Assembly: GCA_000432575.1 (NCBI GenBank)
Contig: HF996829.1
Coordinates: forward strand, 35,272 to 99,271
Length of the DNA stretch: 64,000 bases
Reading direction: 5' to 3'
Origin: Clostridium sp. CAG:762
GTDB lineage: Bacteria > Bacillota_I > Bacilli_A > RF39 > UBA660
Under the pieces are notes generated by a model, which saw only the letters and a list, made by a program, of their open reading frames with translations, did no database searches and was not told the origin of the DNA. Position 1 is the first letter of the stretch; each line of letters starts with the position of its first letter. This document shows, in pieces, positions 5,463 to 26,200 of the stretch. Made by a program: the position numbers and the translations under genes.

Positions 5463-6410
5463 TTATTCAATAACAAGAATTTGACCAATGCTAAGAAGAT
5501 TACTAGAAAGATTATTTAGAGCCTTTAAATTATCAACAGAAGTATTAAATTTTTTTGCAATTGAATATAAACTATCCCCCTTTTGAACTGTATAAGTAGT
5601 TTGTTTATGGGAAGTTGGAATCTTTAAAACCTGACCAACACTTAATAGATTGGATGTAAGGTTATTAAATTTTTTTAATTTATCCACAGTCGTACCTAAC
5701 TTTCTTGCTATAGAGTAAAGACTATCGCCTCTTTGAACAACATAAGTTTCGCTTGGTAGTTCTTGCGATGGTGTTGTTATAGGTATTTTAAGTACCTGAC
5801 CAATGCTAAGAGTGTTAGAGACAAGCTTATTTAACTTCTTAATTTCATCTACAGTTGTATTATATTTTCTCGCTATTGCATAAAGATTATCACCACTTTT
5901 AACTGTATAATTAATAGTTCCTGGTGTTACTGTTGAAGTAGTACTTGATTTTATTTTTAACACTTGCCCTATTTTTAAAGTATTAGAAGTTAGATTATTT
6001 AGTTTTTTTAGTTCATCAACGGTAAGACCAAATTTTTTAGAAATAGCATATAAACTGTCGCCTGCCTTAACAGTGTATGTTTCATCACTTACTGCAAATG
6101 GAGAAGTATATTTATAGCCAGCATATTCAGCAATAGCTTTTATAACTGCCTCAGCCAATTGTTTATAGTTATCTTGTAAATATTTAACTTTATCTGGAGT
6201 ATCATCAATAAAACCATATTCAACAATGACAGGCTGTGTACGACCTGTATTTCTATGCATAAAATAATAGTCTTTACTTGTATCAGATGGAAGCCGGCGC
6301 TGATAATATTTACGAACGGACTGACCAGTATCAGCAATGTTGTTCAAAATGTCTTTGGCAAGAACGTCGCTGTTGCGAAGGGCGTAAATTACCTCGGCGC
6401 CAGTACCACC
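5463..6410 (-). pseudogene. C-terminal segment of a split N-acetylmuramoyl-L-alanine amidase (distal part of the Amidase_3 catalytic domain plus 4 LysM repeats); the N-terminal segment lies at 25920..26200
   Basis: The reading frame is open from an in-frame TGA at 6420-6422. The translation reads LSPGGTGAEVIYALRNSDVLAKDILNNIADTGQSVRKYY...VEYGFIDD, followed by four repeats of YTVKxGDSLYxIAxKxxTxVxxLKxLNxLxSNxLxxGQxLKIP (LysM). Confidence 0.8.
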
Positions 6411-6434
6411 TGGTGATAGTCAAAATGTAACTTT

Positions 6435-7286
6435 TTATTTTTTTGTTAAATTAATTATATAATTTTCAATTATTTCTTTATTTTCAGTCATCTCTTGTTG
6501 TAAATTTGATAAATCAGTTTTTAGTTTTTTTACTATATCTTTATATTTATCTGTAAAATGTTCATTAATCTTCCAATGAAGATACTCTTTATATTTATTA
6601 GTATAATCTTCAGTTAATTTACTTTTGTCAACTTTTGAACATAATAACACAAATCCCATGAATACACAAAAAACATCTATATGATTTTTCTTATCATTAA
6701 CTAAATATTTTAAAGAACAATATATTAATATTTCTAAAAAATAAGCAGTTTGATAAAAATATAGTATAAATAAATCTTCATCTTTGTTCCTATTCACTTC
6801 TATCATCATACTAACTACAATAGAACTATGAGTATATAAACATAATTTTTCATATGTGTCTTCTAGTAATAATTGTAGTTCTTCTTTATTAAATTCTTCA
6901 AATAAAATTGGACTAATTTCCTTTAATTTAAATTTAAAATTGTTCAATATTGCTGTAGGACGAGTATTTTTGCTTCTACCACATTTTTCTAAACTCTTAA
7001 ACTCTTCATAAGTATCTATAGGATCAAAATATATCATCATTGACATCATTACTTTCTCCATGCACGAACGCATTAATGTCGCAGAATCTACTATATTATT
7101 TCTTCTTAAAGTTTTATATACATTATTAATAGTATTATTTGCTTGATACAATAAATTAATTGTTTCAATACTAATATCAGCAGTTACTGATATATTCTTT
7201 AGATATCTCTTTATATATCTTCTCATTGGTTTTATAAAATTATTCTTTACTAATTGTTCAATAAATATTAAATTTTTTTCTTCCAT
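6435..7286 (-). CDS. Hypothetical protein (283 aa) at the left end of the element
   Basis: ORF only; no recognised motifs. AT-rich and Lys/Asn-rich. Confidence 0.45.
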   Translation of the reverse strand: MEEKNLIFIEQLVKNNFIKPMRRYIKRYLKNISVTADISIETINLLYQANNTINNVYKTLRRNNIVDSATLMRSCMEKVMMSMMIYFDPIDTYEEFKSLEKCGRSKNTRPTAILNNFKFKLKEISPILFEEFNKEELQLLLEDTYEKLCLYTHSSIVVSMMIEVNRNKDEDLFILYFYQTAYFLEILIYCSLKYLVNDKKNHIDVFCVFMGFVLLCSKVDKSKLTEDYTNKYKEYLHWKINEHFTDKYKDIVKKLKTDLSNLQQEMTENKEIIENYIINLTKK

Positions 7287-7315
7287 TTTGCCACCAAATA
7301 TAAATTTTATATTCT

Positions 7316-7639
7316 TTATTCTTTTATATCATATTCTAATGATAATTTATTAAAAGTTTCTAAATCACATTTGCTTTTTAGTTCATTCATATATAAAGAT
7401 TTATAAAAAGACCATCTTTGAATAAAATCAGCAATTGACATTTGATCTATTGAAATATATTGAGCATTTGGTTTTAATTCTTCAATAGATTCATAAATGA
7501 TAGACTCTTTTTGAAATTTCGATTTTGCCTTTAATGTTATTTCTTTTAACTTTTCACGATTTGGGTATGATGAATTTAATTGTTTGTCAATATCTTGTAT
7601 ATCCTTTATTAATTCTAATATATCTTTTTCTAGTTTCAT
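7316..7639 (-). CDS. Hypothetical protein (107 aa)
   Basis: ORF only. Confidence 0.4.
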   Translation of the reverse strand: MKLEKDILELIKDIQDIDKQLNSSYPNREKLKEITLKAKSKFQKESIIYESIEELKPNAQYISIDQMSIADFIQRWSFYKSLYMNELKSKCDLETFNKLSLEYDIKE

Positions 7640-7651
7640 AATTAATCACCT

Positions 7652-8194
7652 CTACTTCATTTCAATTTCCTTTTCATCAACATATTGGTAATTTAACAAA
7701 TTATCACTAGTAATCACACTTTTACCCAGCTCATTCTCTAAATCTTTTCTTGCATTACCAGCAATTTTGCCACCTCGTCTTGCTACATCAATGTTTTCAT
7801 TTAATCCTTTTGGATTTTTCTTTTTGCTATTTCTCTAGTTGCAATTTCACCTAAATCAGCTAATGTCACTTCTACATCGGTCATATTATCTCTTAATGAT
7901 TCTTTCCTAAGTCCTTTAAATGATTTATACTCTTTTGCAGTCATACCAGACCATTCTTTATAAATTTCATTTGTTAGAATTGCATACTCTTTTGATTCAG
8001 TTATTCCTCCATCTTTCCATACATCTGTAAGTTGTTTTCTATCTTGAATACCTTTAATTCTTTTTGCAATCCATTTTTCATCATAACCTTTAGTTCTATA
8101 TAAGTCTATTGCTCTTTGTGCTGCTAATGAAGGATCAAAAATTTCATCTATTCTCTCACTTCCTAGTTTAGCAAGCCATTGTTTTATAGGCTCT
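7652..8194 (-). pseudogene. C-terminal part of a split and frameshifted Bro-N/DinD-like (DNA-damage-inducible protein D family) gene
   Basis: Frame 1 gives ..EPIKQWLAKLGSERIDEIFDP..EYAILTNEIYKEWSGMTAKEYKSFKGLRKESLRDNMTDVEVTLADLGEIATREIAKRKIQKD*. A -1/+1 shifted frame continues with GLNENIDVARRGGKIAGNARKDLENELGKSVITSDN..*, the conserved DinD tail. The shift lies in the run GCAAAAAGAAAAATCC at about 7805-7830. Confidence 0.65.
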
Positions 8195-8197
8195 CTG

Positions 8198-9865
8198 TTA
8201 AGACCCAAATGACACGTTTTGGGTCTTAACATCTTGAGGCGTTAGAGCAATTTTAAATTCAGAACCTGTTTTTAATATAAATCTAATTACATTTGGATCT
8301 TTCTCTCCATTTTTTAATACTTCTCCAACTACAATTTTCTCTACAAAATTTTCAAAAGTGTTTTCATCAAATTCCGTTAAAGTGCAAGGAATATTTATAA
8401 TCTTTTCTATTTCTTTTATTTTAGTAGAAATATTTTTATTATCCTCATTTAATTTTTGTAGTTCCTTTAATTCCTCATCTAAATTAGATAATTTTGTTTT
8501 TATTTCTTCTTCTTTTAAATCATAAACTTCTTTTGTAATACTATTATCTAATCTCATATCAACTAATTTTAATAACTTATCTTGTAATACTTTTTTATTG
8601 TTTTCTATTTCGTTAATACTCTTTTGATAATCATTATCATTAATAACACCTTTTATTGTGTTTAAAAGAAGTTCTTTTGTTTTATGCTTATTCTTAACAA
8701 TATTATTATAAAGTTCTATAAACATTTTTTCTAATATATCTTCTCTGATATATCTTGAATCTTTACAATCTTTCTTATCATAGACTCTTTGATAACACAT
8801 CCAATAATAAGGAATAGTACCATCTTTTTTCTTGCTTCCATGTCTTCTAACATAAGTTGTTCCACAAAATCCACAAGTTATTTTACTACTAAAAGGATAC
8901 CTTTTACTATAATTTGTTGGGTGTTTACTTCCTTCAGGTATTACTTTACTACTTCGTTTTTCGTATATCTCCTGTGCCTTATTCCAAACTTCTCTTGTTA
9001 TTATAGGAATATGATGGTCTTTTACATAGTATTTTTCTTTCTCTCCAAAATTTTGAACTGCTCTATGCGAAATAGGATTTTCAATATACCATTTTTGACT
9101 AATTAAATCTCCAACATATTTCTCATTGATAATCATATTCCTTATTCTACTACTTGTCCATCTTTTACCAGTATAAGTTAATATTCCTTTTTCATTTAAT
9201 AATCTTGCTATTGTTTGTGTACCTTTACCATTAATATACCAATCAAATACTTGTCTAACAATTTTGGCTTGTTCTTCGTTTATTTCAAGTTCTTTTGTTT
9301 CTTTATTCCAAACATATCCATATATTCTAGCAATACCATTCATTTCGCCACGTTTCATTTTGGCTCTCATACCCATTTGAACATTTTGAGATGTTGATTC
9401 ACTTTCTGCTTGTGCAAATGCACTATAAAGTGTTAAAAACATTTCGCTATCTAATTCTAGAGTATGAATATTTTCTTTTTCAAAATATACATCTACATTA
9501 TGTTCACGAAGTAATCTAACATATTTTAAAGTATCAAGTGTATTTCTAGCAAATCTTGATATAGACTTTGCTATGATAATATCTATCTTACCATTTAAAG
9601 CATCATCTATCATTCGCATAAATTCTGTTCTTTTCTTAACTTGTGTTCCACTAATACCCTCATCAGCATATACACCAGCAAATTCCCAATCTGGATTAGA
9701 TTTAATATAATTCGTATAATGATTAATTTGTGAAGAATAACTTGTTAATTGTTCTTCGGAATCAGTGCTTACTCTTGCATAAGCACAAACTTTTTTAATT
9801 ATTCTTTTAACGGAATTTTTAATATTATTTTTGAGATTAGCTGCAATAATCTCAACTTGTGCCAT
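8198..9865 (-). CDS. Large serine recombinase (resolvase/invertase N-terminal domain + recombinase domain + zinc ribbon + coiled-coil)
   Basis: AYARVSTDSEEQ catalytic Ser motif, IIIAKSISRFARN, zinc ribbon CGFCGTTYVRR..YYWMC; 555 aa. Confidence 0.9.
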   Translation of the reverse strand: MAQVEIIAANLKNNIKNSVKRIIKKVCAYARVSTDSEEQLTSYSSQINHYTNYIKSNPDWEFAGVYADEGISGTQVKKRTEFMRMIDDALNGKIDIIIAKSISRFARNTLDTLKYVRLLREHNVDVYFEKENIHTLELDSEMFLTLYSAFAQAESESTSQNVQMGMRAKMKRGEMNGIARIYGYVWNKETKELEINEEQAKIVRQVFDWYINGKGTQTIARLLNEKGILTYTGKRWTSSRIRNMIINEKYVGDLISQKWYIENPISHRAVQNFGEKEKYYVKDHHIPIITREVWNKAQEIYEKRSSKVIPEGSKHPTNYSKRYPFSSKITCGFCGTTYVRRHGSKKKDGTIPYYWMCYQRVYDKKDCKDSRYIREDILEKMFIELYNNIVKNKHKTKELLLNTIKGVINDNDYQKSINEIENNKKVLQDKLLKLVDMRLDNSITKEVYDLKEEEIKTKLSNLDEELKELQKLNEDNKNISTKIKEIEKIINIPCTLTEFDENTFENFVEKIVVGEVLKNGEKDPNVIRFILKTGSEFKIALTPQDVKTQNVSFGS

Positions 9866-10199
9866 TTAATACCTCACTTTCACTTTTATTTTTTTTGAAC
9901 TTGCAGTCGTGTTCTCATTAATTATTATACTAAATTTTTGACTAATTCTATAGTCATTAATAAAAACTTTTAATTTTTTCTTTCAACACATAAAATTGTT
10001 TTTCATTAATTAATTCTAATTTTAATAATTTTGATATTATAGATAAATTAATTGTTTCATCAATAATATTATCTATTTCTATTTGTGTTAATATCTTTTC
10101 TTTGTTATCATCTTCTTTCATAGTTAAAATTACCCCCTTTCTTTTTATTATTTTTTAAACTTCATTTTCATAACTAATCTCAAATCCTTTCCGTTAATT

Positions 10200-10619
10200 T
10201 CATCTATAAGGTTTTAACAATTCTTCCATTTCTAATCTTTCTTCTTCAATAGGTGGTATTGTTTCTTCTCGTTTTCCATTCCAAACTTCTACACCATCAG
10301 GATCCACTCTAATATGTGGACCATTTCTACCATTTATTAATTCATCTTCATTATTTGCTATATCTAAAACAGTTATAAATAATTTAATATTGTTATTAGA
10401 ACTATAAGAATTAAGATAACCCTTAATAAATACTTTAGTCCCTTTAACAAAAAAATCTTTATATATTTCATAAAGATTTCGGTTAATATTTAAACTAGAA
10501 TATACTTTTCTTTTATCATATTTAAGAGTGGTTAATCCAAACTTAATATAATCTTGATTATTATCCATTATATTATTAATTGTTCCAGATATAATTATTT
10601 CATTTAAATCTACATTCAT
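10200..10619 (-). CDS. OB-fold protein, possibly SSB-like (139 aa)
   Basis: Weak call: N-terminal b-rich region ISGTINN..FVKGTKVFIKGYL and an acidic C-terminal tail EEERLEMEELL. Confidence 0.3.
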   Translation of the reverse strand: MNVDLNEIIISGTINNIMDNNQDYIKFGLTTLKYDKRKVYSSLNINRNLYEIYKDFFVKGTKVFIKGYLNSYSSNNNIKLFITVLDIANNEDELINGRNGPHIRVDPDGVEVWNGKREETIPPIEEERLEMEELLKPYR

Positions 10620-10759
10620 ATATCATTTCCTTTCGTTTAATTAATTTAAATTATTTAAATAATTTTAAACTTATATTATTTATTATAATTATTTATTAAT
10701 ATTATTTATTCTGTTAGAAGTTATTCGCTATACATATAGGCAGTATCTTGCTATTTAAT

Positions 10760-11032
10760 CTAGAAGATATTTGCTAAATATATTTTTCTAGCACTATCGT
10801 CATTATCAATTTTAAGATAATTATTTCTTCTCAAAGTTGTTATTGAACTAGATATAGTTCTTTTAGATACTTTTAATAAATTACTTAAATATCTATTACT
10901 TGCATAACAATATCCATCTTTCATTGATAAAGTTGTTATTAAGCCCATTAATAGTTTAGTAGTAGAAGATAAAACTTCATCTAGTAAAACTACCATCGGT
11001 ACTTGTATATATTTTAAATTAGTTAAATCCAT
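10760..11032 (-). CDS. HTH protein of the phage replisome-organizer/RepA_N-like type (90 aa from an internal Met; the track ORF extends to 11191)
   Basis: Motif GYCYASNRYLSNLLKVSKRTISSSITTLRRNNYL, paralogous to 18183..18710. A GGAGA RBS lies 8 nt upstream of the ATG at 11030-11032. Confidence 0.5.
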   Translation of the reverse strand: MDLTNLKYIQVPMVVLLDEVLSSTTKLLMGLITTLSMKDGYCYASNRYLSNLLKVSKRTISSSITTLRRNNYLKIDNDDSARKIYLANIF

Positions 11033-11332
11033 AATATCATTCTCCTTTTCTTTAATTTTTTGCAACAAAAAAACTTGTAAACACATATTACAAGCCATAA
11101 CAATTAATAAACGACTTAAAATAAATACACAATGTGAAATAAACACATCTTTAATGGTTGCTTGAAGTAAAACATATAATACATATTTCAATCCCTTTTA
11201 TTCTTTTTGTTTAGTTCTTTGAAATATGTTTTACTTCAAACTAGTTCATCTCATATTTCTATAAGATAGGTTCTAACATAAGCCTCCAATCTTACTGAAC
11301 CTTATTTGCTAACGACTATCTATGTGTCTTCT

Positions 11333-11596
11333 TTAGCAAATGTGATACTCATACATTCCTGTATGATATTCTTTGAATCTTAGATAATTATTATTTTGTA
11401 ATTGTTCTAAGATTTTTCTTAGTCCTTTGTTTTTTATTCGAACTGTCTGTTGAATATCTCCTACATTTAGATGTGAGATAGTTCTTTCAAATCCCTCTGC
11501 ATATAGATATGCAAATATTTCTTTTGCTTTAGGTTTGATATTCTTATCTTCCCATATCTTGTGGTTTGATATATCTAGATGTTTTAAGTTTCTCAT
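11333..11596 (-). CDS. Small winged-helix/HTH DNA-binding protein (87 aa)
   Basis: ..EIFAYLYAEGFERTISHLNVGDIQQTVRIKNKGLRKILEQL.., divergent from the XRE gene. Confidence 0.4.
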   Translation of the reverse strand: MRNLKHLDISNHKIWEDKNIKPKAKEIFAYLYAEGFERTISHLNVGDIQQTVRIKNKGLRKILEQLQNNNYLRFKEYHTGMYEYHIC

Positions 11597-11747
11597 TCAT
11601 ATCTTGTCCTCCTTTCTTTTTGGAAATTAAGTTTCCATAATCCGACAATACATCATAAATATTATATTGTCAACCCTGTTTCCGTTTTTTTCTTGCATAT
11701 TTCTATTTTTTGTTATATAATTAAGTTGTCAGAGGAGATGATTAGGA

Positions 11748-12257
11748 ATGTTAAATAAAAAAAAATCTGATGAGACACTTGCAGAATTAGTAAGAAATGC
11801 ACGAAAAGAAAAAGGATTATCTGCAAGGAAACTAGCTAACCTACTTAATTTAAGTCATACTGAAATAAATAATATAGAGAGTGGTTATAGAGTTAAGCCA
11901 TCAATTATTGTATTAAAAGGATTAGAACAATATTTAGGTATTCCTTTTACTAAATCTGCAAAACTTGTAGGATATTCAAAAGAAACAATAAAATATGGTG
12001 AAGATGAAATTATTGTTAGCTATGAAATGTATGATAAGAAAATAAAAGAATTTAAAGAAGAAATTAGAAATGCCGAAAATACCATTGAATTAAAAAGACA
12101 TATAGCAATGGATACAGAAGAATATTTTAAAGATATACATAATTATTTAAAAGAACAGAAAGATATTGATAAAAAATTATTAGATAAGGCAAATTCTATT
12201 GAAAGATTTTTATCAGAAATACAAAGAAAATACGAGAGTATTTTCAAAGAAAAATAA
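11748..12257 (+). CDS. XRE-family (Cro/CI-type) HTH transcriptional regulator
   Basis: LSARKLANLLNLSHTEINNIESGYRVKPSIIVLKGLEQYLGI. Confidence 0.75.
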   Translation: MLNKKKSDETLAELVRNARKEKGLSARKLANLLNLSHTEINNIESGYRVKPSIIVLKGLEQYLGIPFTKSAKLVGYSKETIKYGEDEIIVSYEMYDKKIKEFKEEIRNAENTIELKRHIAMDTEEYFKDIHNYLKEQKDIDKKLLDKANSIERFLSEIQRKYESIFKEK

Positions 12258-12377
12258 CCTTTTACCATTATTGGTATTAGGTTATTTTTTGTATAAAAAA
12301 GGATATTACGTTTTGTTGCGTTAGCAATGAAAGTAGTAGACTTTTTTCTTTTTTATGAAGTCATAAGACAAAATAAA

Positions 12378-12430
12378 AAAGGCACCAATACTTTTTACGA
12401 TAGTTTACAGTATTGGTGCTTATTGGGTTT
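12378..12430 (+). terminator. Rho-independent terminator (stem GCACCAATACT/AGTATTGGTGC, then a T-rich tail)
   Basis: 11-bp perfect stem downstream of 11748..12257, followed by TTATTGGGTTTTT. Confidence 0.5.
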
Positions 12431-12504
12431 TTAAAGGATCTCCTTTGGCACACTATTCCTAGTTGGCATTATGCCGACTTGGTAGTGTGTTACTATAATG
12501 GAAT

Positions 12505-12545
12505 TATAGTTTTTAAAAACAGATTAACTTTATCAATTAATCTGT
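12505..12545 (-). terminator. Rho-independent terminator for the 12563..13711 gene
   Basis: Stem CAGATTAA/TTAATCTG, followed on the minus strand by TTTTTAAAAA. Confidence 0.5.
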
Positions 12546-12562
12546 TTAATTTAAATAAATAA

Positions 12563-13711
12563 CTATTTTTTCCTAATTGTTAATACAGCAGGATTTACAG
12601 TTCCTTTTTCTTCTGAATCTTCAATACCATATTGTTTATTCCAATATTTTCTATATTCTTCACCTTGTTTTGCAAAATGTGATAGAGCATTTGCAGTAGC
12701 TCCAGCCATAAATCCACTTAATCCTAACTCTTCATTGTATACTTGTTGTTCAGCTTCTTCAAATGAAATACCTTCTTCAAATTTCTTCATCATTGAAATA
12801 GTTGCTTTAACAACAAATACTGAATAACCATCATTACTATTATTATCAGCAAATTGTAACCATTCTTCTGCTGTTTCAGGTTTAACTAAAGTTAATCCCT
12901 CTTTCATTAATGTGTATTTAGCTTTTTTAGCTGCTAAATCTGCACGTTCTATTGCTTTATTTCTTTCTTCTTCGGCTTTTAATCTTCTATCTCTTTGCTT
13001 ATCAACAATAACATCACCAAAGAATTTTCTTTTTGAATCTTCAATATCTTCTGGGCTTCTTCTATCATAGCCATATTCTATATATGGATTAGAATATAGT
13101 TCTTCGCCAGTTTCTTCTAATGTTATAGATGAAATTGCAGAACCATAGCCTATAAATGGTATTCCAGAATGTTCTGTTTCAATATTTGAAAAATAATTTA
13201 CATTTCTTAATGTATCAGTTTCATTTTGCTCAACTCCGTACCACCAAGCTTTATATGAAATTCTTTCCCCAATATGTTTTTTTAGGTTTTCAAACATTCT
13301 AATAGCATTTTTTTCTTTGCTATGTTTTGCAATATATTCAGCAAAAGTCATATCTCCTTCTTCCATTGGTAAGAAAGAACCTGCTTGAGTATGGCATACA
13401 TAATTATAACCATTACATTTCATGTTGCTAATTAGAATTCTATAATCTGGATTATTTCCATATTTTGCTTTAATTTCATCTAAACTATATCTTTTTCCAA
13501 AATAAATCCATCTAGAATAATTTGATTTTTCACCATCATAAGTTTTTTCACCATCTACAACATATTCTTTGTCGTAAAAACGGAATCCTTGCATTTTACC
13601 ATCATTTTCAATTTGCATAGGATTTCTTTCAGTCACTTCTTTTATTGAAGATTCACTAAATAATAGACCTCTGTAAATTTTCTCAACATAAGTTTTAGTT
13701 ATTTTTTCCAT
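12563..13711 (-). CDS. Hypothetical cargo protein (382 aa from MEKITKTY; the track ORF extends to 13780)
   Basis: Strong RBS GAAGGGGGAAATATT upstream of the ATG at 13709-13711. No recognised domains; a charged coiled-coil-like segment KQRDRRLKAEEERNKAIERADLAAKKAK. Confidence 0.55.
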   Translation of the reverse strand: MEKITKTYVEKIYRGLLFSESSIKEVTERNPMQIENDGKMQGFRFYDKEYVVDGEKTYDGEKSNYSRWIYFGKRYSLDEIKAKYGNNPDYRILISNMKCNGYNYVCHTQAGSFLPMEEGDMTFAEYIAKHSKEKNAIRMFENLKKHIGERISYKAWWYGVEQNETDTLRNVNYFSNIETEHSGIPFIGYGSAISSITLEETGEELYSNPYIEYGYDRRSPEDIEDSKRKFFGDVIVDKQRDRRLKAEEERNKAIERADLAAKKAKYTLMKEGLTLVKPETAEEWLQFADNNSNDGYSVFVVKATISMMKKFEEGISFEEAEQQVYNEELGLSGFMAGATANALSHFAKQGEEYRKYWNKQYGIEDSEEKGTVNPAVLTIRKK

Positions 13712-13806
13712 AATATTTCCCCCTTCAGAAAATCGTTTAATATAATAGCATAAATTAACTAGAATGTCAAGCAAATCCAACTGATTTGTATTAAAAGCAG
13801 GGAAAA

Positions 13807-14199
13807 CTATAATAAATTTAATGAATAATAATAATCATATACATTTAATTTTTGGTTAATTATAATATTTATTTCTTCATCATTAAAATCATATTGAAAG
13901 ATTTTAAATAATAATTCTACTAAAAAATTTTGCTTTTCTAATAATGATAATTCCATATATTTAGCTGATATAAATAATAAGTTTTTATATTTAGCAAAGT
14001 TAGTTATTACTTTTTTATAATTTGAATCTAATATTCCTAATACTTCTTTTAATAATCTAATGAAACTTTCGTCATATTTAGTAGAAAAACAATTTTCTTC
14101 AAGTATATGTATTGCTAATCTAACCTTATTAATCCCATTTAAATCATCAATAATATCAACTAAATTCATTACCCTTTCTGTATTATTTTCTAATAGCAT
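13807..14199 (-). CDS. Hypothetical protein (130 aa)
   Basis: ORF only. Confidence 0.35.
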   Translation of the reverse strand: MLLENNTERVMNLVDIIDDLNGINKVRLAIHILEENCFSTKYDESFIRLLKEVLGILDSNYKKVITNFAKYKNLLFISAKYMELSLLEKQNFLVELLFKIFQYDFNDEEINIIINQKLNVYDYYYSLNLL

Positions 14200-14373
14200 A
14201 AATCTTCCACCTTCCTAATTTGCCATTTAAGGCACTTTATTTCAAAGAACAGATAAGAGATTAAGCTTTACCTTAAAACCTCAATATGAGTGATTAAATT
14301 AGGTTTAATCTCGTTTTCTTGTCTTTTTATTTATCACTCAAACAATTAAAAAAATCAAGAGTGTTTTTTAATT

Positions 14374-15971: not shown

Positions 15972-16283
15972 TTCTGCATTCTTGCTAGGAACTGATTCAA
16001 TAATTCTAAACATTCCTTCAATATCAACAACGTCAGTCATACGATATTTTCCATCTTGTGCTTTTAATTTTAAAGCGTGACAATTTGTCACGGTTTCATT
16101 TCCTTCTTCTTTTAAACGTTGCTTAAGTTTTCTCCAATAGGCTTGCTTATCCTTACTTTCCGAAATAACTCCAACAAAATCAACAACACTTATAAAATAT
16201 TTTTCTTGTTCCTTATCCCAAACAGTTCTAATTGTTTCATTATTAAACATTTTATTTACTAAATGCATTTTATCTTGATTCAT
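15972..16283 (-). pseudogene. N-terminal part (Bro-N domain) of the split Bro-N/DinD-like gene
   Basis: MNQDKMHLVNKMFNNETIRTVWDKEQEKYFISVVDFVGVIS..TNCHALKLKAQDGKYRMTDVVDIEGMFRIIESVPSKNAEVF, then 3 element-derived codons and a stop (track ORF 15954..16283). Confidence 0.65.
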
Positions 16284-16397
16284 AAGATACCTCCTTTGCT
16301 GTATATATTATATCAAATATTTGTTCTTTTTTCAACATTTGTATAAGTAGTTTATCAATTATTTTATGTACACATTGTCGCAAGTTACGACAAAGTT

Positions 16398-18008: not shown

Positions 18009-18182
18009 CTAAAGCCAATTAAATTATACCATACAAATTTAATTTGGCACATTGTATCAATCACTATTTACCTTACTTTTAATAAATTTAATTACCAGTT
18101 CATAGAAATTAGGAGAATCATCTTTGAAAGTTTCTATTATATTAAACATAAGCCACCTCATTTAAGTATATGAGTGTCTTTA

Positions 18183-18710
18183 TCAATTTATATCTTCCTC
18201 CATTTCTTTAAAACTCTCTAGCTTTTTCTCCATCTCTTTTTGTTCTTCCTTAGTTGCTTCTTTTGATTCAATAGGTTCACCATGCCAGTATTCAACACCA
18301 AATTCATCCACATAATAAATTTTATCTAATATATCTTTTTTATTTTTATTATATTTATTATAATGGTTAAAATTATTTTGAATACTAGTATTAATATTTC
18401 CTTGAATACTTGTTATTCTTTTCTTTAATACCTCGGATAATTTTATTATCCTCTTTGAATTATTTGTTTCACTATTATTAATTTCTATATCAATATATCC
18501 ATTTTTTGATAAACTACTTATACTCTTTGATACAGTTGGTTTGGTACAATCAAACTTCTTCATAAAATATCTATTAGTAGGCCAACAATAGCCATTTTTC
18601 TTACATAGTGACACAATGTCTATTAATAATATTCTCTCAAAGTAAGTTAATCTATTATCTCCTAATACTGATTCTGGTAATACTAAACTTATAAATGGTT
18701 CTTTTTCCAT
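18183..18710 (-). CDS. HTH protein of the replisome-organizer/RepA_N-like type (175 aa), paralog of 10760..11032
   Basis: GYCWPTNRYFMKKFDCTKPTVSKSISSLSKNGYI; sits immediately upstream of the recombinase. Confidence 0.5.
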   Translation of the reverse strand: MEKEPFISLVLPESVLGDNRLTYFERILLIDIVSLCKKNGYCWPTNRYFMKKFDCTKPTVSKSISSLSKNGYIDIEINNSETNNSKRIIKLSEVLKKRITSIQGNINTSIQNNFNHYNKYNKNKKDILDKIYYVDEFGVEYWHGEPIESKEATKEEQKEMEKKLESFKEMEEDIN

Positions 18711-19105: not shown

Positions 19106-19390
19106 TCAAATACCATCATTATTTTCTTGCTGACTTTTTACAAAACTATTATATTCATCTACCTTAGTATTATAATCATTTAAAATATCTTTTATTAATG
19201 ACACAAGCCCTTCTTCTTCTGGAGTTTTATCATCAAATTCTTTGTTAATTGTGTATTTACTCTTTAAATTTTCATTTAACAAAAATTTTACCAATTCTTT
19301 AAAATCTATATCTTTCGAAAAATTATATGTTTCAATAAGATTTTTATCATGATATAGTTTTATATTATCTTGTTCTTTAATTATTTCCAT
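19106..19390 (-). CDS. Hypothetical small protein (94 aa)
   Basis: ORF only; overlaps the downstream gene start. Confidence 0.35.
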   Translation of the reverse strand: MEIIKEQDNIKLYHDKNLIETYNFSKDIDFKELVKFLLNENLKSKYTINKEFDDKTPEEEGLVSLIKDILNDYNTKVDEYNSFVKSQQENNDGI

Positions 19391-21842
19391 ATTCCTCTTC
19401 TCCTAACACATTTCCATATTTTTTATTTCTATTAGAAAATGATTTTCTACCACCATCTAAAATATTCATTATTTCTTCTTTATCATCCTGCGATTCTATT
19501 AAATAATTTTTATAATCTATTTCACCATCATTAGTCACAAATATATAATTAAATGCATCACCATATACCGCAACTGTAGGATTATGAGTTACAAAAATTA
19601 ATTGCTTAATTTTTTTCTTTTCTTTTATTATTGAAACTAGCTTTTGACTAATATAATCATTATCAATATTATCTTCAGGTTGGTCAAATAGTAATATTAA
19701 TTCGTTAAGTTCAAATAACATATCTAAATATGCTACCGACTTCATTCCTGGAGATTCCTTTGATAAATCAGTAATAGTTCTCTTATCAATTTGTTCAAAC
19801 AAATCCTTTTTTACCTTTATATCATCAATATTTATTTTTGAATTAATTTTAAAAAACTCTTTTTTAGGTTGAAATATTTCATTTTGTATGAATTTTGACA
19901 ATTCTGCGGATAAACTGTTGATATTAGCTTTTAGATTTCTTTCTCCATTAATATACTTCATTATTAAACTAAAATCACTTGAATCACTTTTTACTTTCGA
20001 AATTGTACTTGCTATTTTTTCATAAATTGTATCAATAAGATTATCTGGTACTTCATATGAAGTTGTAAATAAATATGGCATTTTAACATATTTCTTTATA
20101 ACAGGGCTTTCTTGTTTAAAATTATCAAGTAAATAATTTAACTTTTTAGAATCTAATATTATTTTAAAATTTCTTTTTATTATATTAATAATACTATTTA
20201 AATTTTTTCGTTGTTCTTGTATTATTTTTTTAGATTCATCTCTTTCACTTATAATTTTGTTTGTTCTCTCATTACTATTTTTTACAACTTCACTATATTT
20301 ATCAAGTAAAAATTTGTATTCACTATATTTTTCAATTATTGTACTATTAATATTTTTTAATTCATCAATATTTAATCCATAATTTTCAAATTCTTTTACT
20401 AATTCATTTAGAGATTTTGAAAGACTATTTATTTTAATAGATACTGAGTCACTGCTTATTTCTGCATAAGTATCATATGTATAATAGTCAGTTTTATCTT
20501 TTAAAATCTTTAAAATTGATGTTATATTTTTATAATTGATATCAATTGGTTTTACATTTTTAGCAATATCTATTATTTGATTAATATATGATAAATCATA
20601 ATCATCTATTTTAGGAAAATATGAAGATATTTGCTTATTAGCAATATCAGGATTTTTATATATTTCAGAAATCTTATCTTGTTCTAATACAGCAAGTGAA
20701 GATAATTGACCAGGATTAATTTTAATTCCATTATAATCAATTCCCAAAACGTTTTTAATATTAAAATTTTTATAATCTGTTGTTATTTTATTATTAGATT
20801 TATTTAAATTCTCAATTATTGCTAATAGTAATGACTTGCCACTTCCTCTTTTTCCAATTATTACATTTAAACCAGGCGAAAAATTAATATCCTTGTTTTT
20901 ACCATTAAGTTCAAAAGAAATACTACTAATAATATTAGGAGGAATTGGTATTTGTTCTTCAGCAGATTTAATAATTCTCGATTGTGGATCTAATACAGCT
21001 AATTCAAATGTTTCAAAAAAGTATTCCAATGAGCCAAAAATATAATTATATATTTGTGGATTATATGGTTCAGCATTATGCCAATCACTAAATTTAAAAT
21101 AACTAAAATAATTACCATAATTTATTATATAATCATATATTTTTTTACAATCCTTATCTGCTATTTCATACTTTTTATCATTTATCTTTTTCCTTATTTC
21201 AGATATAATGAATTTCTTTTCTTTTTCACTTTTATCTTTTAAATTTTTTTCAAACGCTTGAGTTTGTTCATAAAACCCTAACGCCCAATTATCACATGAC
21301 CTTTCATTAAAAGAGGCTGTAACATCAAAAGCACTAAATATTTTGTACATTGCATATTTATTTATATCATTAGACTCTTCTATTGATATTTTATCTAATA
21401 TACTTAAAATACCTCTTGCTTTATTTCCTTCAGGTACAAGGATTATTTTACATTTTAATTGTACAATACAATTTATTATTTCGTGAAATTTTGGTTTATT
21501 ATCATTCTTATAAAGATCATTCAATATTTTTTCCAATCTATTTCCATCTAGATTGTTATCGAAATAAACTCCCATTTGAAAAAAATCTTTATCATTTACA
21601 TAAACATCTAATTCAGTTCCATTTATTATTTCAATTGGTTTGTCTATAATATATTTCCGAATATCATCATAATATGATGATGAATAGACATCATGATCAG
21701 TAATGCTAAAAATGTTTATCCCCTTATCTAAAAGAGCATCCACATAATCCTTAGCACTCATTTGCTTTACTCTAGTTTTATCCTTACTTTTTGAATAATA
21801 TGAATGCATATGCATATCACATTTTAACCATTGTTGTTTCAT
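19377..21842 (-). CDS. PHP-domain phosphoesterase fused to an ABC/AAA-type ATPase (single-gene Ppl-like antiphage architecture)
   Basis: N-terminus MHMHSYYS..FSITDHD (PHP His/Asp motifs). Walker A GLNVIIGKRGSGKSLLL, Walker B LILLFDQPEDNID, and H-loop FVTHNP; 821 aa. Confidence 0.55.
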   Translation of the reverse strand: MKQQWLKCDMHMHSYYSKSKDKTRVKQMSAKDYVDALLDKGINIFSITDHDVYSSSYYDDIRKYIIDKPIEIINGTELDVYVNDKDFFQMGVYFDNNLDGNRLEKILNDLYKNDNKPKFHEIINCIVQLKCKIILVPEGNKARGILSILDKISIEESNDINKYAMYKIFSAFDVTASFNERSCDNWALGFYEQTQAFEKNLKDKSEKEKKFIISEIRKKINDKKYEIADKDCKKIYDYIINYGNYFSYFKFSDWHNAEPYNPQIYNYIFGSLEYFFETFELAVLDPQSRIIKSAEEQIPIPPNIISSISFELNGKNKDINFSPGLNVIIGKRGSGKSLLLAIIENLNKSNNKITTDYKNFNIKNVLGIDYNGIKINPGQLSSLAVLEQDKISEIYKNPDIANKQISSYFPKIDDYDLSYINQIIDIAKNVKPIDINYKNITSILKILKDKTDYYTYDTYAEISSDSVSIKINSLSKSLNELVKEFENYGLNIDELKNINSTIIEKYSEYKFLLDKYSEVVKNSNERTNKIISERDESKKIIQEQRKNLNSIINIIKRNFKIILDSKKLNYLLDNFKQESPVIKKYVKMPYLFTTSYEVPDNLIDTIYEKIASTISKVKSDSSDFSLIMKYINGERNLKANINSLSAELSKFIQNEIFQPKKEFFKINSKINIDDIKVKKDLFEQIDKRTITDLSKESPGMKSVAYLDMLFELNELILLFDQPEDNIDNDYISQKLVSIIKEKKKIKQLIFVTHNPTVAVYGDAFNYIFVTNDGEIDYKNYLIESQDDKEEIMNILDGGRKSFSNRNKKYGNVLGEEEYGNN

Positions 21843-21917
21843 TTATACTACCTCCACTACATAAAAAGCGCAATACAAAAACTTAAACAAGTGTAAGCCT
21901 GTACTAGCGCTTTAAAA

Positions 21918-23081
21918 TTATTTATTTCCCTTTGCTCTATTATGTGTCTGACATAACATTTGACAATTATCTATATCTGTAGATCCGCCTTTACTCCATG
22001 CAGTAACATGATCTGCATCCATTTCTTTTAATTCCCAAATTCTATTTTTATTATTATCATTTCCTATTGCACATAATGGACAATTACTTATATCTTTTAA
22101 TTTTGCATCTTGAGTTTGTTTTTCATATACAACTCGCTTTGTATTATCATCAAATACTCTAATATTCAAAAGTTTAGTATCTTTACATCCACCTAATATA
22201 TACTCACATATACCTTTAGTATCTTTAACTTGTGGATCAGCATATAATTTACATAATATTTCAGAAACCTTATTAGGATCATATGAATTGTTATGATATG
22301 TTTCATATAATCTTCCCCATTCAAGACCTCTCATATCTGATTTTACATCTTTAAATACAGTTGATACCCAAGTTATTACAGAATTGAAATATGTTCTTAA
22401 TTCTGTAATATTAGTATCAAATCTATGTTGACTCATGTAACTATCAATATTACCTTTACTTACCCAATTAAGAGCTGTTGCAAGATATTCTTGCCTATTT
22501 ACATCACCTTTTATATATGCGCTCCATTTTTGAATATTTGCATTTTGAGAATTAGAAAATTCTTCACGAGCCATAGTTACAAAAGGTCCAGAATAAATAG
22601 CATTTAATAATTCTTGATTATTTAGTGGAACACCTACAATATTAATTGTTTTAAACCATTCTTTAATTTCTGATTCTTCACCCTCACAAATATAAATTGT
22701 TAACTGTGAATCAAGAATCTTATCTTGTAAATTTTTAGCCAGTCCATCAAAATATTGCTCCATACAATGTTCATCTTTAATAGCAAATTTATCTGTAATA
22801 AATCTTCCAAAACTAGTAACTCTTTGTTGCCCATCTAAAATTTCATATTTATCTTCTCCAACTTTAACAAAATATAATAAACCTAGTGGATAACCTTTTA
22901 ATAATGAATTAATTACAGCAACATCCCTTTTTCCATCAGCATAAATATAGTTTCTTTGATATTCAGGTTGAATTGTTAATTTTCCACCCCATCCAAATAA
23001 GCCTTTTCCTTCATATTCATTATAAACAAATCCTTCATTTATATCTCTAACAGTTAAATCAGTTTTCAATATTGTTTTCAT
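21918..23081 (-). CDS. DUF262 (ParB-like) + C-terminal HNH nuclease: GmrSD-like type IV restriction endonuclease
   Basis: [14 protein letters not shown] (DGQQR motif) at the N-terminus and [31 protein letters not shown] (HNH) at the C-terminus. Confidence 0.7.
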
Positions 23082-24180
23082 TATTTACCTCCTTAAATTC
23101 TATTAATATTCTAGCATATACTCTTTTACCATTTATTAATGGACATGCAAGTCTTTCTCCTTTAAATGGAATGCCGACAATAAAAGCATCATATCCAGCT
23201 GATGCCAGAAGTCCAACAATCCTAAATTGTTCTGGATTATATTTATCCAAAAAAGTAATTGGAACTCCCATAACACCTTTGTAATCTGCCGGAATTGAAT
23301 CTGTAAAAGAAATATCAATAGCATCATAATTATCGTATTTTGGATATCCATGTTCCCTTATTTGTTTATGTTTACTATATTTTAAATTATCTTCCATTGT
23401 CATTAATTGTAATGGTTGATGTCTCCTTCCATGTTCTATATTGGTAAGCCATAAACAATTATTAGTAGAAACTATTCTAAGTCCTTCTTCATTTATGCGT
23501 GCTTCTGTACCATACAATTCATATGATTTTGGGACAATAAATCCCGAAATCCATCTACCCATTCCATTGCCTAACCATGCTCTATTCGTTCTTATCAAAG
23601 TAAATACTTCTTTATATGATATACAATTAATATTGCCAATTAATAAAAATTGTTTGTTTGCTTCTACTACCCACGATAAAAATTCCCTAAATAAACTAAA
23701 TGGTGGATTAGTGATTATTATATTAGCTTCATTGCGAAGTTTTTTTACTTCTTCAGATCTAAAATCACCATCACCTTCTAGATAATCCCACTTTAAATCT
23801 TCAATATCTATTCTTCCTGAATTGTTTTCATCTCTATCTAAAATAAATACCTTCCCATGTGTTTTAGTTTTATTTTTATCAAATTTTGGAGATTTTTCTT
23901 CAAAAAGCGATAGCTGAACCATTACATTTTCTTTTTTATCATTTGCATAACTAGTACTTATAAGTTTTTTTAATCCAAACCTTTCAAAGTTTTGTGCAAA
24001 AAATTTTGTAAAATTACTCCATTCTGGATCATCACACGGAAGTAAAACTATTTTGTCTCTAAACAAATTAGGATTATATTCTAAATATGCATTAACCTCC
24101 TTTTGTATATCTGAATATAATGTATAAAACTCATCATTTTTTGATTCTTTTGCTTTCTTTAGCATTTCTCTTTTTGGCAT
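23059..24180 (-). CDS. N6-adenine-specific DNA methyltransferase
   Basis: Motif [11 protein letters not shown]; an N-terminal [17 protein letters not shown] region; 373 aa. The start overlaps GmrSD-like gene by 23 nt. Confidence 0.7.
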
Positions 24181-24184
24181 ATAA

Positions 24185-24841
24185 TCACTTCCTACTAACT
24201 AAAATTTTTTCTAACTTATGTTCTAATTGATATAAAGTATTTTCACTAGATACATCTCCACCTAGGTCTTCAAGTGCTGAATATAATATTTGACGTTTTG
24301 ATGGATTTGAATTATTTGGTACCTCAATATCCGTATTTTTCTCATATATACCTAAAGTTCCATCTTCATTTGTTTTAGAATAATAATCTTTTCCAGTTAA
24401 ACTTGAATGAAAACTAATATTTTTAAAATGATGTCTATTTTTTGACAACATTAAAGCATCTTTCTTATCTTCTATTTCCTTTGCTGTTTCTTTCCATAGA
24501 TGAAGTCTATCAGTTGTTCCATTTATTTCAGTCATACTTTCAAATGCAGAATACATTTCTTCTGGACTCATATGGTAGAATTCTCTTACTCTAATTTTAT
24601 CTCCTATTTTTTCTTTACTTCTTAATTCTGGATTTATAGTATCTATGAATTTGTGTAATTTTATATCAGTTAATCTCTCAGTTACATCAAAAGTTGCATA
24701 AATATGAAAAGAAAAAGGAACCGCTTCAGAATTATTTAATTGTTTTACTCTTAGTTCAACATCATCTGCATATCCAATTTTGATATATTCTGGAAATGAT
24801 GGATTAGTTAATATATAAATTACACCACATTTTTCTTTCAT
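24185..24841 (-). CDS. GIY-YIG (T5orf172-type) domain protein, possible nuclease partner of the methyltransferase
   Basis: GVIYILTNPSFPEYIKIGYA...R..QLN at the N-terminus; C-terminal half unknown. Confidence 0.5.
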   Translation of the reverse strand: MKEKCGVIYILTNPSFPEYIKIGYADDVELRVKQLNNSEAVPFSFHIYATFDVTERLTDIKLHKFIDTINPELRSKEKIGDKIRVREFYHMSPEEMYSAFESMTEINGTTDRLHLWKETAKEIEDKKDALMLSKNRHHFKNISFHSSLTGKDYYSKTNEDGTLGIYEKNTDIEVPNNSNPSKRQILYSALEDLGGDVSSENTLYQLEHKLEKILVSRK

Positions 24842-24856
24842 ACACTCTCACTCCTA

Positions 24857-24886
24857 AAGTTTTAACTCAATAATATTATATCATAC
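24857..24886 (-). promoter_or_regulatory. Candidate extended -10 promoter (TGaTATAAT) for the GIY-YIG/MTase/GmrSD operon
   Basis: The minus strand reads ..AATTGTCGAATTGTATGATATAATATTATTGAG.. about 35 nt upstream of the ATG. Confidence 0.3.
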
Positions 24887-25081
24887 AATTCGACAATTTT
24901 TTAATTTTGACATTGAAATAATTACAAATTTTAATTTTCAAAATAGGTTTTGGGAGTATTCCCACAATAGAATTTCGTACAGGAGTACAAATTCATTGCT
25001 TGCTAGACAATAAATTTACTCCCAAACCAATTAATTCACATTTAAAAACTCTATCAGTTTCATCTGACAGAGTTCTACTTT

Positions 25082-25381
25082 TTAATAATATTTCTTCAAT
25101 ATCATTGGATTATCTTTTACTATTACTAAATTATATTTTATTTTTAATATTTCTTTTATCTTAGGTATAAGTCTACTAATATCACATCTACAATTAAATA
25201 TATCTACAGCAGAGTTAATATGATTTATTAAATTATATTCTGATAAGCAATATCTACTATATGAATTTGCTAAATAAAATACTACTAAATCAGGTATAAC
25301 ATATTTATTTAAATAATCATTAACATTGTTATAGAAAGGCAAATATATTTCTTCAAATTCTTTATCAGTTATATCACACAT
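25082..25381 (-). CDS. Hypothetical protein (99 aa)
   Basis: ORF only; 8-nt overlap with the tnpV-like gene. Confidence 0.35.
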   Translation of the reverse strand: MCDITDKEFEEIYLPFYNNVNDYLNKYVIPDLVVFYLANSYSRYCLSEYNLINHINSAVDIFNCRCDISRLIPKIKEILKIKYNLVIVKDNPMILKKYY

Positions 25382-25724
25382 AGATATACTCCTTTAAAAC
25401 TATTTCTTCTACCATATTTTTTATATTATTCATTTTACCTATCCATAACATTTTATTACTACTTTTTAATTCTTCAGTAATATTTTCTTTTTCAGCTAGG
25501 TCTTTAATTAACTTCTTCACCATCTCCATAACAATAGTATCAACATTATGAAGATATTCATTTAATGTATCACTAACAAGTAAATCAAAATATAATCCTA
25601 ATTTGTAATTCTTAATATAATTTAATCTTAATAACCCATATTTTCCTATATTATATTGTTTTTTATTTTCTAATATTAAATCTGGCAATAAATAATCACC
25701 ACTCTTAGTGTAACTAATATTCAT
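25374..25724 (-). CDS. tnpV: TnpV-family transposon protein (Tn4451 TnpV-like)
   Basis: SYTKSGDYLLPDL..GKYGLLRLNYIKN..YFDLLVSDTLNEYL..ITEELKSSNKMLWIGKMNNIKNMVEEIVLKEYIY matches the conserved TnpV pattern (GDYxxPDL, GxYG, GTLxxHL, VTExLKAxDxxxWxxxMNxI..AEEIV). Confidence 0.6.
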   Translation of the reverse strand: MNISYTKSGDYLLPDLILENKKQYNIGKYGLLRLNYIKNYKLGLYFDLLVSDTLNEYLHNVDTIVMEMVKKLIKDLAEKENITEELKSSNKMLWIGKMNNIKNMVEEIVLKEYIYV

Positions 25725-25919
25725 AACAGTTCTCCATTTCTTTCTATATTTATTTGGCTTTAATTGTTATACATTCGTTACACAATGACTATACTTCTAA
25801 TTTCAAATTTGGTAATAAATAATCACCAATTCTAGTGTAACTAATGCTCATAATTTTCCTCATTTCTTTCTATTTTATTTGGCTTTAATTGTTATACATT
25901 CGTTACACAATGACTATCG
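25684..25919. repeat. Imperfect tandem duplication (2 x about 110 bp, period about 127 bp, about 90% identical) of the right terminus, including the terminal inverted repeat and the 5' end of tnpV
   Basis: Copy 1 spans 25684-25794 and copy 2 spans 25811-25919. Both contain GGCTTTAATTGTTATACATTCGTTACACAATGACTAT, and copy 2 encodes a 21-codon remnant MSISYTRIGDYLLPNLKLEV*. Confidence 0.7.
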
Positions 25920-26200
25920 CCACCCCCTGCATTCAAGTGATTAGACACCACAACCACATTAGGATTGTTACCAAACGCATCCAACACCAAATTAGTTCTT
26001 TCATTTGGAGCCAATGTCTTATCACTATCACGCGTCAATGCAACAGGTATCCCCAGTTCCTTAAACCTATCATACATATACTTAGATATCATCAAATTAT
26101 AATCTTTTTCCTTCAAATTATTTCCCAAAGCACCCGAATCACTACCTCCATGACCAGGATCAATTACAATACCTACTAAAGATTTATCCATGTTTATCAC
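25920..26200 (-). pseudogene. N-terminal segment of the split N-acetylmuramoyl-L-alanine amidase (Amidase_3)
   Basis: MINMDKSLVGIVIDPGHGGSDSGALGNNLKEKDYNLMISKYM..GIPVALTRDSDKTLAPNERTNL..VVVVSNHLNAGGG, then an element-derived DSHCVTNV* (track ORF 25892..26200). Compare B. subtilis CwlC IFIDPGHGGSDPGA...FLSIHVNSGGGTG. Confidence 0.8.

Follow-up and report, generated by a model that had tools for sequence, protein, structure and literature searches.

Several elements are known that interrupt genes of the mother cell and are removed by precise excision, which restores the gene: skin in sigK, SPbeta in spsM, vfbin in spoVFB, vrin in spoVR and yin in yabG (PMC5025042, PMC5499854, PMC4191935, PMC10747680). 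Skin-type elements bear large serine recombinases (LSRs), and the recombinase of yin is described as similar to SpoIVCA and CD1234. The closest described system to the one reported here is gin, located in gerE of Bacillus cereus ATCC 10987 (PMC5595907). It is not a phage, and among its several LSRs a single one acts at the host gene. It has restriction-modification (R-M) cargo and a short core, and is excised during sporulation by its recombinase together with a small extra factor, GirX (PMC5595907). Here we describe a 64,000-nt stretch of DNA from the metagenomic species Clostridium sp. CAG:762, an uncultured organism of the human gut (contig HF996829.1, positions 35,272 to 99,271; hereafter the window), in which a gene encoding an Amidase_3 protein with four LysM repeats is interrupted by 19.5 kb of mobile DNA. 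We consider it probable that this DNA is a gene-intervening element in a late-sporulation-type amidase, excised in the mother cell, which would make the amidase a new target gene for sporulation-type intervening elements. No amidase or cwlC-type target of such elements was found in the literature searched.

The amidase gene lies on the minus strand and is cut by the insert at codon 91/92. The two pieces and the attachment sites that border them are as follows.

25920..26191, minus strand: amidase N piece, codons 1-91, starting MDKSL... and ending ...SNHLNAGGG; matches the Amidase_3 fold
5463..6410, minus strand: amidase C piece, with the remainder of the catalytic domain (TGAEVIY..., E153) followed by four LysM repeats
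25895..25924, minus strand: attL, core GGTGG (25924..25920) and element arm P' (GCGATAGTCATTGTGTAAC...)
6406..6431, minus strand: attR, element arm P (GTTACATTTTGACTATCACCA) and core GGTGG (6410..6406)

The N piece begins with an ATG at 26191, preceded by the ribosome-binding site (RBS) AGGTGAT, and runs for 91 codons up to the core at 25924..25920, beyond which 8 unrelated codons lead to a stop at 25892. The frame of the C piece opens within ...LSPGG/TGAEVIYALRN... at 6410; residue 92 is read from 6404, the stop codon ends at 5463, and the LysM part consists of four 124-nt repeats. The original prediction, which was made from the letters of the window and their open reading frames (ORFs), had located both pieces of this split gene correctly, except that it gave the N piece 93 codons instead of the 91 counted from the ATG at 26191. 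GGTGG, which reads CCACC on the plus strand, is present at both junctions (25924..25920 and 6410..6406), and fusion of the pieces at this pentamer gave a 404-aa ORF, as had been anticipated for precise excision at that core. The best database matches of the rebuilt protein were two intact 404-aa proteins, P0001 (99%) and P0002 (98%), over 100% of the length, so that both halves lie contiguously on one homologue. The uninterrupted genes of these related strains share the neighbours found in the window, namely tatD, ksgA, yabP and yabQ upstream and a convergent gene for a 474-aa polysaccharide deacetylase downstream. Their empty-site DNA (AATGCAGGGGGTGGTACTGGCGCC) is exactly the sum of the left side of attL, the core and the right side of attR, in strains 97-99% identical to the window. 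Because close relatives have the empty site, the 19,514 bp between the two cores can be recognized from the sequence as an insertion, and its precise excision would restore the amidase ORF. The structure of the split gene and its element is thereby proven. The insert carries two LSR genes, designated LSR1 and LSR2, together with a MobV relaxase, TnpV and defence genes, in agreement with the content predicted for it.

The N piece contains DPGHGG, E28 and H85, presumed to provide the zinc ligands of the Amidase_3 fold, three in all. According to the alignment made, the catalytic glutamate of this fold presumably lies in the C piece. With the ligands in one piece and the glutamate in the other, neither half should work alone. 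No amidase paralogue was found within the window. A 404-aa ORF at 62210..63424 has the same length as the rebuilt amidase and is unrelated to it; its N-terminus is membrane-anchored and tblastn gave no match to the amidase. An identity of the amidase with the spore cortex amidase CwlD (TIGR02883) was rejected, the score being 76.3 bits against an equivalog cut-off of 221.55. In a strain with an intact amidase and flanks of ~97% nucleotide identity (L003 6469..9648; L004 2642..5821), an extra 3.2 kb between yabQ and the amidase promoter region holds small genes of 79, 327, 108, 109, 58 and 181 aa.

The split gene of CAG:762 is deposited as CCZ57403.1 (N piece) and CCZ57378.1 (C piece), and related recombinases come from bins of uncultured gut 'Bacilli', 'Tenericutes' and Erysipelotrichaceae. 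Among the sequences listed, split N pieces occurred on at least 421 contigs (203 + 144 + 20 + 12 + 10 + 9 + 8 + 6 + ...) and intact genes on ~46, or ~60-90 when extrapolated with unlisted cluster members. Split is the majority state in CAG:762, at about 80% of contigs. As the junction recurs in hundreds of contigs and the halves are contiguous on one homologue, the split is not due to chance. TnpV, LSR1 and both amidase pieces were at the amidase locus in all the places shown for them. The tails that follow ...NAGGG in the N pieces vary (DSHCVTNV, ESTYRYNS, ASFYVIKL and others), which indicates that several distinct element arms are found at one codon: at least three arm types within the species and at least five with other species included. 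Cargo elsewhere at this site includes several type I R-M systems, a KAP NTPase, Hachiman (HamA and helicase), Fic and others. The commonest other element type (tail ESTYRYNS, 235 listed blocks; L103-L107 10300..20300) has no TnpV and carries type I R-M genes and Hachiman-like HamA plus helicase. Locus L108 (1..9820) has a similar type I R-M set and a 552-aa LSR adjoining attR, with att arms unrelated to those of the window; it may represent the recombinase end of the ESTYRYNS type.

Since the host is known only from metagenome bins, a false joining of the element into the amidase gene during assembly had to be considered, and a 127-bp duplication of the attL arm in the window (25793..25919, see below) could indeed be a haplotype collapse. 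Both junctions, however, recur in dozens of assemblies that were made independently, in different studies and with different assemblers, the contigs reaching 1.38 Mb, and they are base-precise when compared with the empty sites. Because the junctions recur independently, an assembly artefact is effectively refuted and its probability is negligible.

The same codon is also the target in other species. A scan of metagenome contigs with an alignment of the catalytic domain recovered 15 intact orthologues of 45-70% identity (L114-L131) and ~17 half-genes that end or begin at residue ~91 (L132-L149); the orthologues cut at the same residue as the window amidase have 45-69% identity to it. Their junctions coincide to the base, after ...GCAGGnGGTGG/, and fall into five or more arm families, and several of the half-genes adjoin genes for TnpV, its 99-aa partner (p99) or LSR2-like proteins (55-90% identity). 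For regulated gene integrity, the published criterion is at least two independent integrations by one integrase clade in the same domain at the same position (PMC7192596); at the amidase, one codon is shared by at least five arm types and at least six other-species loci. By their sequences, these loci belong to a non-phage element family that evidently inserts at one GGTGG core, in the codons of the ..NAGGG/TGAE.. loop, by LSR site-specific recombination. Its constant core comprises a Rep-like gene, an ORF of 30-36 aa and a recombinase of the LSR2 type; many members have a TnpV-99aa module at their left end. Furthermore, at L121 and L125 (~2950..3000 each) a different LSR, 30% identical to LSR2, adjoins amidase codon 13/14 at the GHGG motif. 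Judged from sequence, the amidase gene thus offers a further, independent target, used by an unrelated LSR family.

The region in front of the N piece contains a promoter of the sigma-K type.

26207..26233, minus strand: sigma-K-type amidase promoter, AC-N16-CATAGACTA, followed by RBS AGGTGAT and ATG 26191

Promoters for sigma-K have AC as the -35 element and share the -10 element with sigma-E (PMC3789822). The arrangement AC-N16/17-CATAnnnTA, RBS and ATG was present in 15 of ~20 sequences of the same architecture, two of them from the window's own species, while four more had the -10 box only; the surrounding DNA is otherwise unalignable. Among 1276 control ORFs from the same loci, the full motif occurred in 10 (0.8%). 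In B. subtilis, the mother-cell lysin genes cwlC and cwlH are sigma-K/GerE genes (PMC517825), and two sigma-K-dependent amidases of C. difficile were proposed for the same lysis role (PMC3789822). In all 17 orthologues examined, the protein starts 3-15 residues before DPGHGG and has no hydrophobic leader, as judged by inspection and not by a signal-peptide predictor. As no export signal is evident, the amidase would reach the wall only at lysis of its producer. The host encodes YabP and YabQ, both above the NCBIfam equivalog cut-offs, and SpoVT_C and SpoVIF domains were identified in syntenic loci, consistent with the yabP, yabQ and spoVT genes that had been read from the window. The conserved sigma-K-type promoter suggests a specific late function, and together with the apparent lack of a leader it suggests that the amidase gene is of the late-sporulation type and belongs to the mother cell.

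Polymorphism was analyzed in 15-16 split-state CAG:762 loci. The catalytic domain contained 10 synonymous and no replacement polymorphic codons, the LysM region contained 17 synonymous and 6 replacement ones, and neither stops nor indels were found. The pN/pS of the amidase C piece was 0.04; the values for ksgA, the adjacent deacetylase and yabQ were 0.077, 0.285 and 0.50, respectively. The split pieces of other species keep their ORFs to the natural C-terminus, with no decayed piece in ~13 split genes, and retain 26-32 of 32 invariant residues in the N pieces and 35-41 of 41 in the C pieces, the same as intact orthologues of similar divergence. The split alleles are, to judge from these patterns, under strong purifying selection. 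Given this constraint and the ~80% of contigs that are split, the amidase is apparently still used and hence rejoined in some cells. Such a population-wide interruption under strong purifying selection needs an explanation even if excision is not developmental.

One alternative is that the insert is an ordinary site-specific mobilisable defence island, for which a conserved coding sequence provides a dependable attB, the amidase is dispensable or redundant, and excision occurs only for transfer. Serine-recombinase integrative and mobilisable elements are known to disrupt dispensable genes and typically insert in genes that the host can lose (PMC5704250), and TnpV together with MobV points to Tn4451-like mobilisable elements (PMC3158075). 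Movement of the elements between species also fits this alternative, and addiction to the R-M cargo could conceivably explain the high occupancy. A number of further observations weigh against excision in the mother cell as well. One LSR retains 90% identity in a host whose amidase has no more than 59%, and several LSR lineages occur within one species; since the elements are plainly mobile between species, some of the constraint may date from times when the alleles were intact. Paralogous lysins may exist elsewhere in the genome, beyond the window. The short sigma-K motif is not enriched over the whole window (9 matches vs 11.2 in shuffles). Finally, the 24-mer of the attP junction expected in an excised circle (GACTATCACCAGGTGGCGATAGTC) had 0 matches in the JGI metagenome collection and IMG/VR, although this organism is scarce in both and the DNA of a mother cell is short-lived. 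On the other side, a mostly dead gene should drift, yet the amidase, split in ~80% of contigs, shows a ratio of 10 synonymous to 0 replacement codons and the pN/pS of 0.04, and no decayed piece was present among the ~13 split genes of other species. The targeting of another amidase motif by a second, unrelated LSR family and the late function suggested by the promoter also argue against this alternative. We therefore regard an ordinary island as unlikely, though a serious competitor. The 'skin-like' interpretation put forward in the original prediction thus gained from the promoter, the absence of a leader, the purifying selection and the recurrent hits at one codon, while the circle junction that it implies was looked for with no result.

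The 19.5 kb had been read as a single element that carries a MobV relaxase and two large serine recombinases. They in fact comprise two nested elements, with MobV on the inner one, and it is LSR2, not the end-proximal LSR1, that would serve the amidase site. The outer element contains the following features.

25793..25919, minus strand: extra 127 bp, a duplicated P' arm and a 5' fragment of a diverged tnpV
25724..25374, minus strand: tnpV (PF14198, 3e-37), left-end module
25381..25082, minus strand: 99-aa partner gene (p99) of tnpV, left-end module
19106..24841, minus strand: variable defence cargo, with T5orf172/PDC-S57, an EcoRI-like type II methylase, a GmrSD-HNH restriction enzyme, PHP plus AAA ATPase (Ppl/TrlF-like) and a 94-aa ORF
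18183..18710, minus strand: Rep-like HTH_36/DnaD_N gene, replication-initiator-like
18057..18149, minus strand: conserved 30-aa ORF directly upstream of LSR2, candidate recombination directionality factor
16398..17978, minus strand: LSR2, 526 aa, TTG start, large serine recombinase domains
15973..16283, minus strand: N piece of a dinD-like (Bro-N) gene, cut after ...SKNAE
7801..8191, minus strand: C piece of the dinD-like gene, resuming PIKQWLAKLG...
6435..7639, minus strand: region before attR, no family matches; different genes here in other strains

The attL arm is an inverted repeat of the attR arm, and the attP rebuilt from both, GTTACAttttGACTATCaccaGGtggcGATAGTCattgTGTAAC, is an imperfect palindrome centred on GG, as would be expected for an LSR site. 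The 127-bp extra at the left end contains the initial ~29 codons of a tnpV that has diverged from the genuine gene (~85% identity), and is missing in all ten other element copies inspected; it may have been left behind by an earlier element or be an artefact of haplotype collapse or assembly. The tnpV and 99-aa gene pair is kept beside N pieces in other strains and species. The reading frame of LSR2 has 536 aa, the call from a later TTG giving 526 aa. In the orientation of the amidase, LSR1 is followed by genes of 143, 107 and 283 aa.

Single-LSR elements at the same attB have recombinases 95% (L111), 68% (L112/L113) and 56% (L108) identical to LSR2 and only ~25% identical to LSR1. Those at L112/L113 are shorter than the window insert and have the order TnpV-99aa-cargo-HTH_36-32aa-LSR-... 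up to the C piece, and L111 and L108 likewise carry one LSR. The attR arms of L111-L113 are of the same family as those of the window; the L108 type differs. Because the LSR2 family is the only recombinase common to all element types found at attB, we assign LSR2 to the amidase site, to which its family is by sequence the cognate one. LSR2-like genes adjoin split amidases in other species also. LSR1 was rejected as the integrase of this site: it sits in the nested element, an amidase was nearby in only 2 of 80 GTDB loci with LSR1 relatives and split in neither, and none of these loci shares the att arms. No internal copy of an amidase-type att site, which would be a sign of a tandem array, was found in the insert, and there are no tRNA genes in the window that could be alternative att sites. 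No intrinsic terminator was predicted between the N piece and tnpV. Pfam and PHROGs searches gave only Rep-like, Bro-N and TnpV matches, with no phage structural, packaging or lysis genes.

The inner element lies within the dinD-like gene of the outer one and contains the following features.

8192..15972, minus strand: nested mobilisable element, 7,781 bp, MobV through LSR1
15669..14374, minus strand: MobV relaxase
13711..12563, minus strand: Tad4-like gene, C-terminus matching Tad4 (PF25186, 8e-21)
11748..12257, plus strand: HTH_3 gene
11032..10760, minus strand: Rep-like HTH_36 gene
9865..8198, minus strand: LSR1, 555 aa

Its gene order is MobV, 130-aa, Tad4-like, HTH_3 (on the opposite strand), 87-aa, Rep-like HTH_36, 139-aa and LSR1, whose stop codon is 5 nt from the crossover. 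The core is GA, with inverted arms TGTCATTT and AAATGACA. On one side, a 109-aa Bro-N ORF (16283..15954) aligns to residues 1-104 of the intact 284-aa dinD-like protein of L113 (77%); on the other, a 143-aa ORF (8232..7801) aligns to residues 102-228 of the same protein (77%). As both flanking ORFs match one intact protein, the 7,781 bp are a second element. The only close relative of LSR1 in GTDB (L023, 96%) also adjoins a dinD-like C piece, and more distant relatives are not near amidases. The MobV relaxase evidently belongs to an inner hitch-hiker that is unrelated to the outer element. Tad4 is an inhibitor of type I Thoeris, so that an anti-defence gene (12563..13711) is found inside the defence island. 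In some strains an IS30-like transposase gene (HTH_38, 421 aa; L007 4696..5961, L012 1..138) lies between the 130-aa and Tad4-like genes, with its breakpoint at window position 13806. Past this insertion L007 runs into unrelated chromosomal genes, suggesting rearrangement or a chimeric assembly. In one strain (L109 6664..9830), LSR1 is fragmented, leaving two ORFs (159 and 391 aa); the genes between it and attR have been exchanged for two others, of 193 and 313 aa, and the attR arm differs at 5 positions.

A candidate for the control of excision is the small ORF in front of LSR2. An ORF of 30-36 aa (MF[NKE]I[IT]E[TS]FK...) with a strong RBS was found just upstream of the LSR in 6 of 7 aligned elements, whose LSRs are 56-95% identical; at L108 the ORF before the LSR is of the same size and of unrelated sequence. 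At L146 the N piece is followed, ~230 nt further downstream and on the same strand, by the small ORF and LSR pair. A similar layout of small ORF and integrase is seen in SPbeta (sprB/sprA) and in skinCd (CD1234/CD1231) (PMC5499854, PMC5025042). In both of these systems the integrase is constitutive and the directionality factor is controlled by sporulation (PMC5499854, PMC5025042). From its position and conservation, the 30-aa ORF may be the directionality factor of LSR2, as a candidate only. Upstream of the small ORF is a CATA box, which in the window reads ATA-N16-CATATACT (18193..18165) and is sigma-E-like. Two features speak against sporulation control through this box, which we take as no more than a lead. 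The -35 element varies between the elements. In addition, the sequence CTCATAtActTaAATGAG ahead of the small ORF, at window 18150..18175 and at the homologous positions of L111-L113, forms a palindrome with the RBS region as its right half; instead of a -10 box, it could therefore be an operator or a hairpin that acts on translation. Alternatively, LSR2 may act in both directions with no helper, as was reported for the Tn4451 recombinase (PMC5704250).

Between the small ORF and the start of LSR2 there is an extended -10 element (TGGTATAAT) that is sigma-A-like. It is what would be expected if the element were a reversible switch in growing cells, in the style of 'active lysogeny', and the amidase a phase-variable autolysin with no tie to sporulation. 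Selection on the split gene requires some route of expression, which a switch would provide; the Rep-like genes on both elements could keep an excised circle alive, and comK and mutL are precedents cited in PMC7192596. However, the amidase apparently has no export signal on inspection, so that lysis of the producing cell would be needed for it to act, and the conserved promoter in front of it is of the sigma-K and not the sigma-A type. In addition, neither the JGI metagenome collection nor IMG/VR yielded a contig with attP. We judge such a switch to be quite improbable.

In the mother-cell reading, which we favour, the element would stay integrated in growing cells and in the forespore, which would thereby retain the defence genes while the amidase is silent. 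LSR2 would recombine attL with attR in the terminal mother cell, probably with the product of the small upstream ORF, or alone like TnpX and TndX. The 19.5 kb would leave as a circle, and the 404-aa amidase would be rebuilt, expressed and lyse the mother cell. A bolder version extends this to the whole clade: in uncultured gut spore-forming Bacilli, the lysin gene would be a standard parking site for exchangeable anti-phage islands that are kept in the germline and excised only in the terminal mother cell, by LSR2 and a ~30-aa factor, rebuilding the lysin that frees the spore. We advance this version tentatively, as it seems to us slightly more apt to fail than to hold. If it is true, gene integrity, timing of lysis and inheritance of immunity would be coupled, and the lysin gene would be a point of convergence for a second recombinase family, at another of its motifs.

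If excision is developmental, a cell-wall lysin would join sigK, spsM, spoVFB, spoVR, gerE and yabG as a gene rearranged in the mother cell, and this would be the first case in abundant, uncultured gut Bacilli. Most strains would then have, as intervening DNA, a hypervariable hotspot for defence islands, and the separation of germline and soma would allow mobile immunity to be carried without burdening a gene that acts late. The elements also offer naturally orthogonal serine integrases with defined att sites (at least five arm types on one core) and a candidate minimal directionality factor.

In comparison with described intervening elements, the CAG:762 insert interrupts a coding sequence, its excision at a short core would restore the ORF, and its LSR family appears cognate to the host-gene att sites. 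With gin it shares a non-phage nature, a split gene (a mother-cell gene for gin), several LSRs with one for the target, R-M cargo and a short core. The target of gin is a transcription factor, whereas here it is a cell-wall amidase in an uncultured gut Bacilli lineage. The extra recombinase of CAG:762 is carried by a nested MobV element, the cargo is hypervariable, the interrupted state is that of the majority and recurs across species, and excision, unlike that of gin, is a step that we infer. The skin, SPbeta, vfbin, vrin and yin elements are prophages or their remnants; the CAG:762 element has no phage genes.

TnpX of Tn4451 crosses over at a GA core, as does the inner element. That element has been seen only in dinD-like genes, unlike Tn4451 with its low specificity. 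Tn4451 and Tn4453 have in common with the CAG:762 elements a TnpV homologue at one end, a MobV relaxase and an LSR acting at a 2-bp crossover (2-bp target: PMC3158075), but here TnpV and MobV are divided between the outer and the nested element, respectively. In contrast to the low target specificity of Tn4451 (PMC5704250), the outer element is strictly site-specific, with only the amidase as target in the places shown. Plasmid-borne relatives of either LSR are at most 42% identical (the nearest 32-42%), and the annotated match, TndX, is 32% identical to LSR2. Among the cases of regulated gene integrity in the text and supplementary material of PMC7192596 that were searched, Amidase_3 does not occur, the only 'Amidase' being gatA.

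For the target gene itself, the nearest comparison is with CwlC and CwlH of B. subtilis, from which the CAG:762 amidase differs in having four LysM repeats as the wall-binding module in place of SPOR-type repeats. CwlC is not known to have a signal peptide. An N-terminal Amidase_3 domain, C-terminal wall-binding repeats, the ..H.N.GGGTG.E.. loop and a sigma-K-type promoter are common to all of them (PMC517825). This suggests a likeness by architecture and promoter and not by established orthology, which tempers the assignment to the mother cell. Compared with these systems, the CAG:762 locus is unusual in its majority occupancy, its interchangeable defence cargos, the at least five att-arm lineages on one core, the second recombinase family and the nested MobV element.

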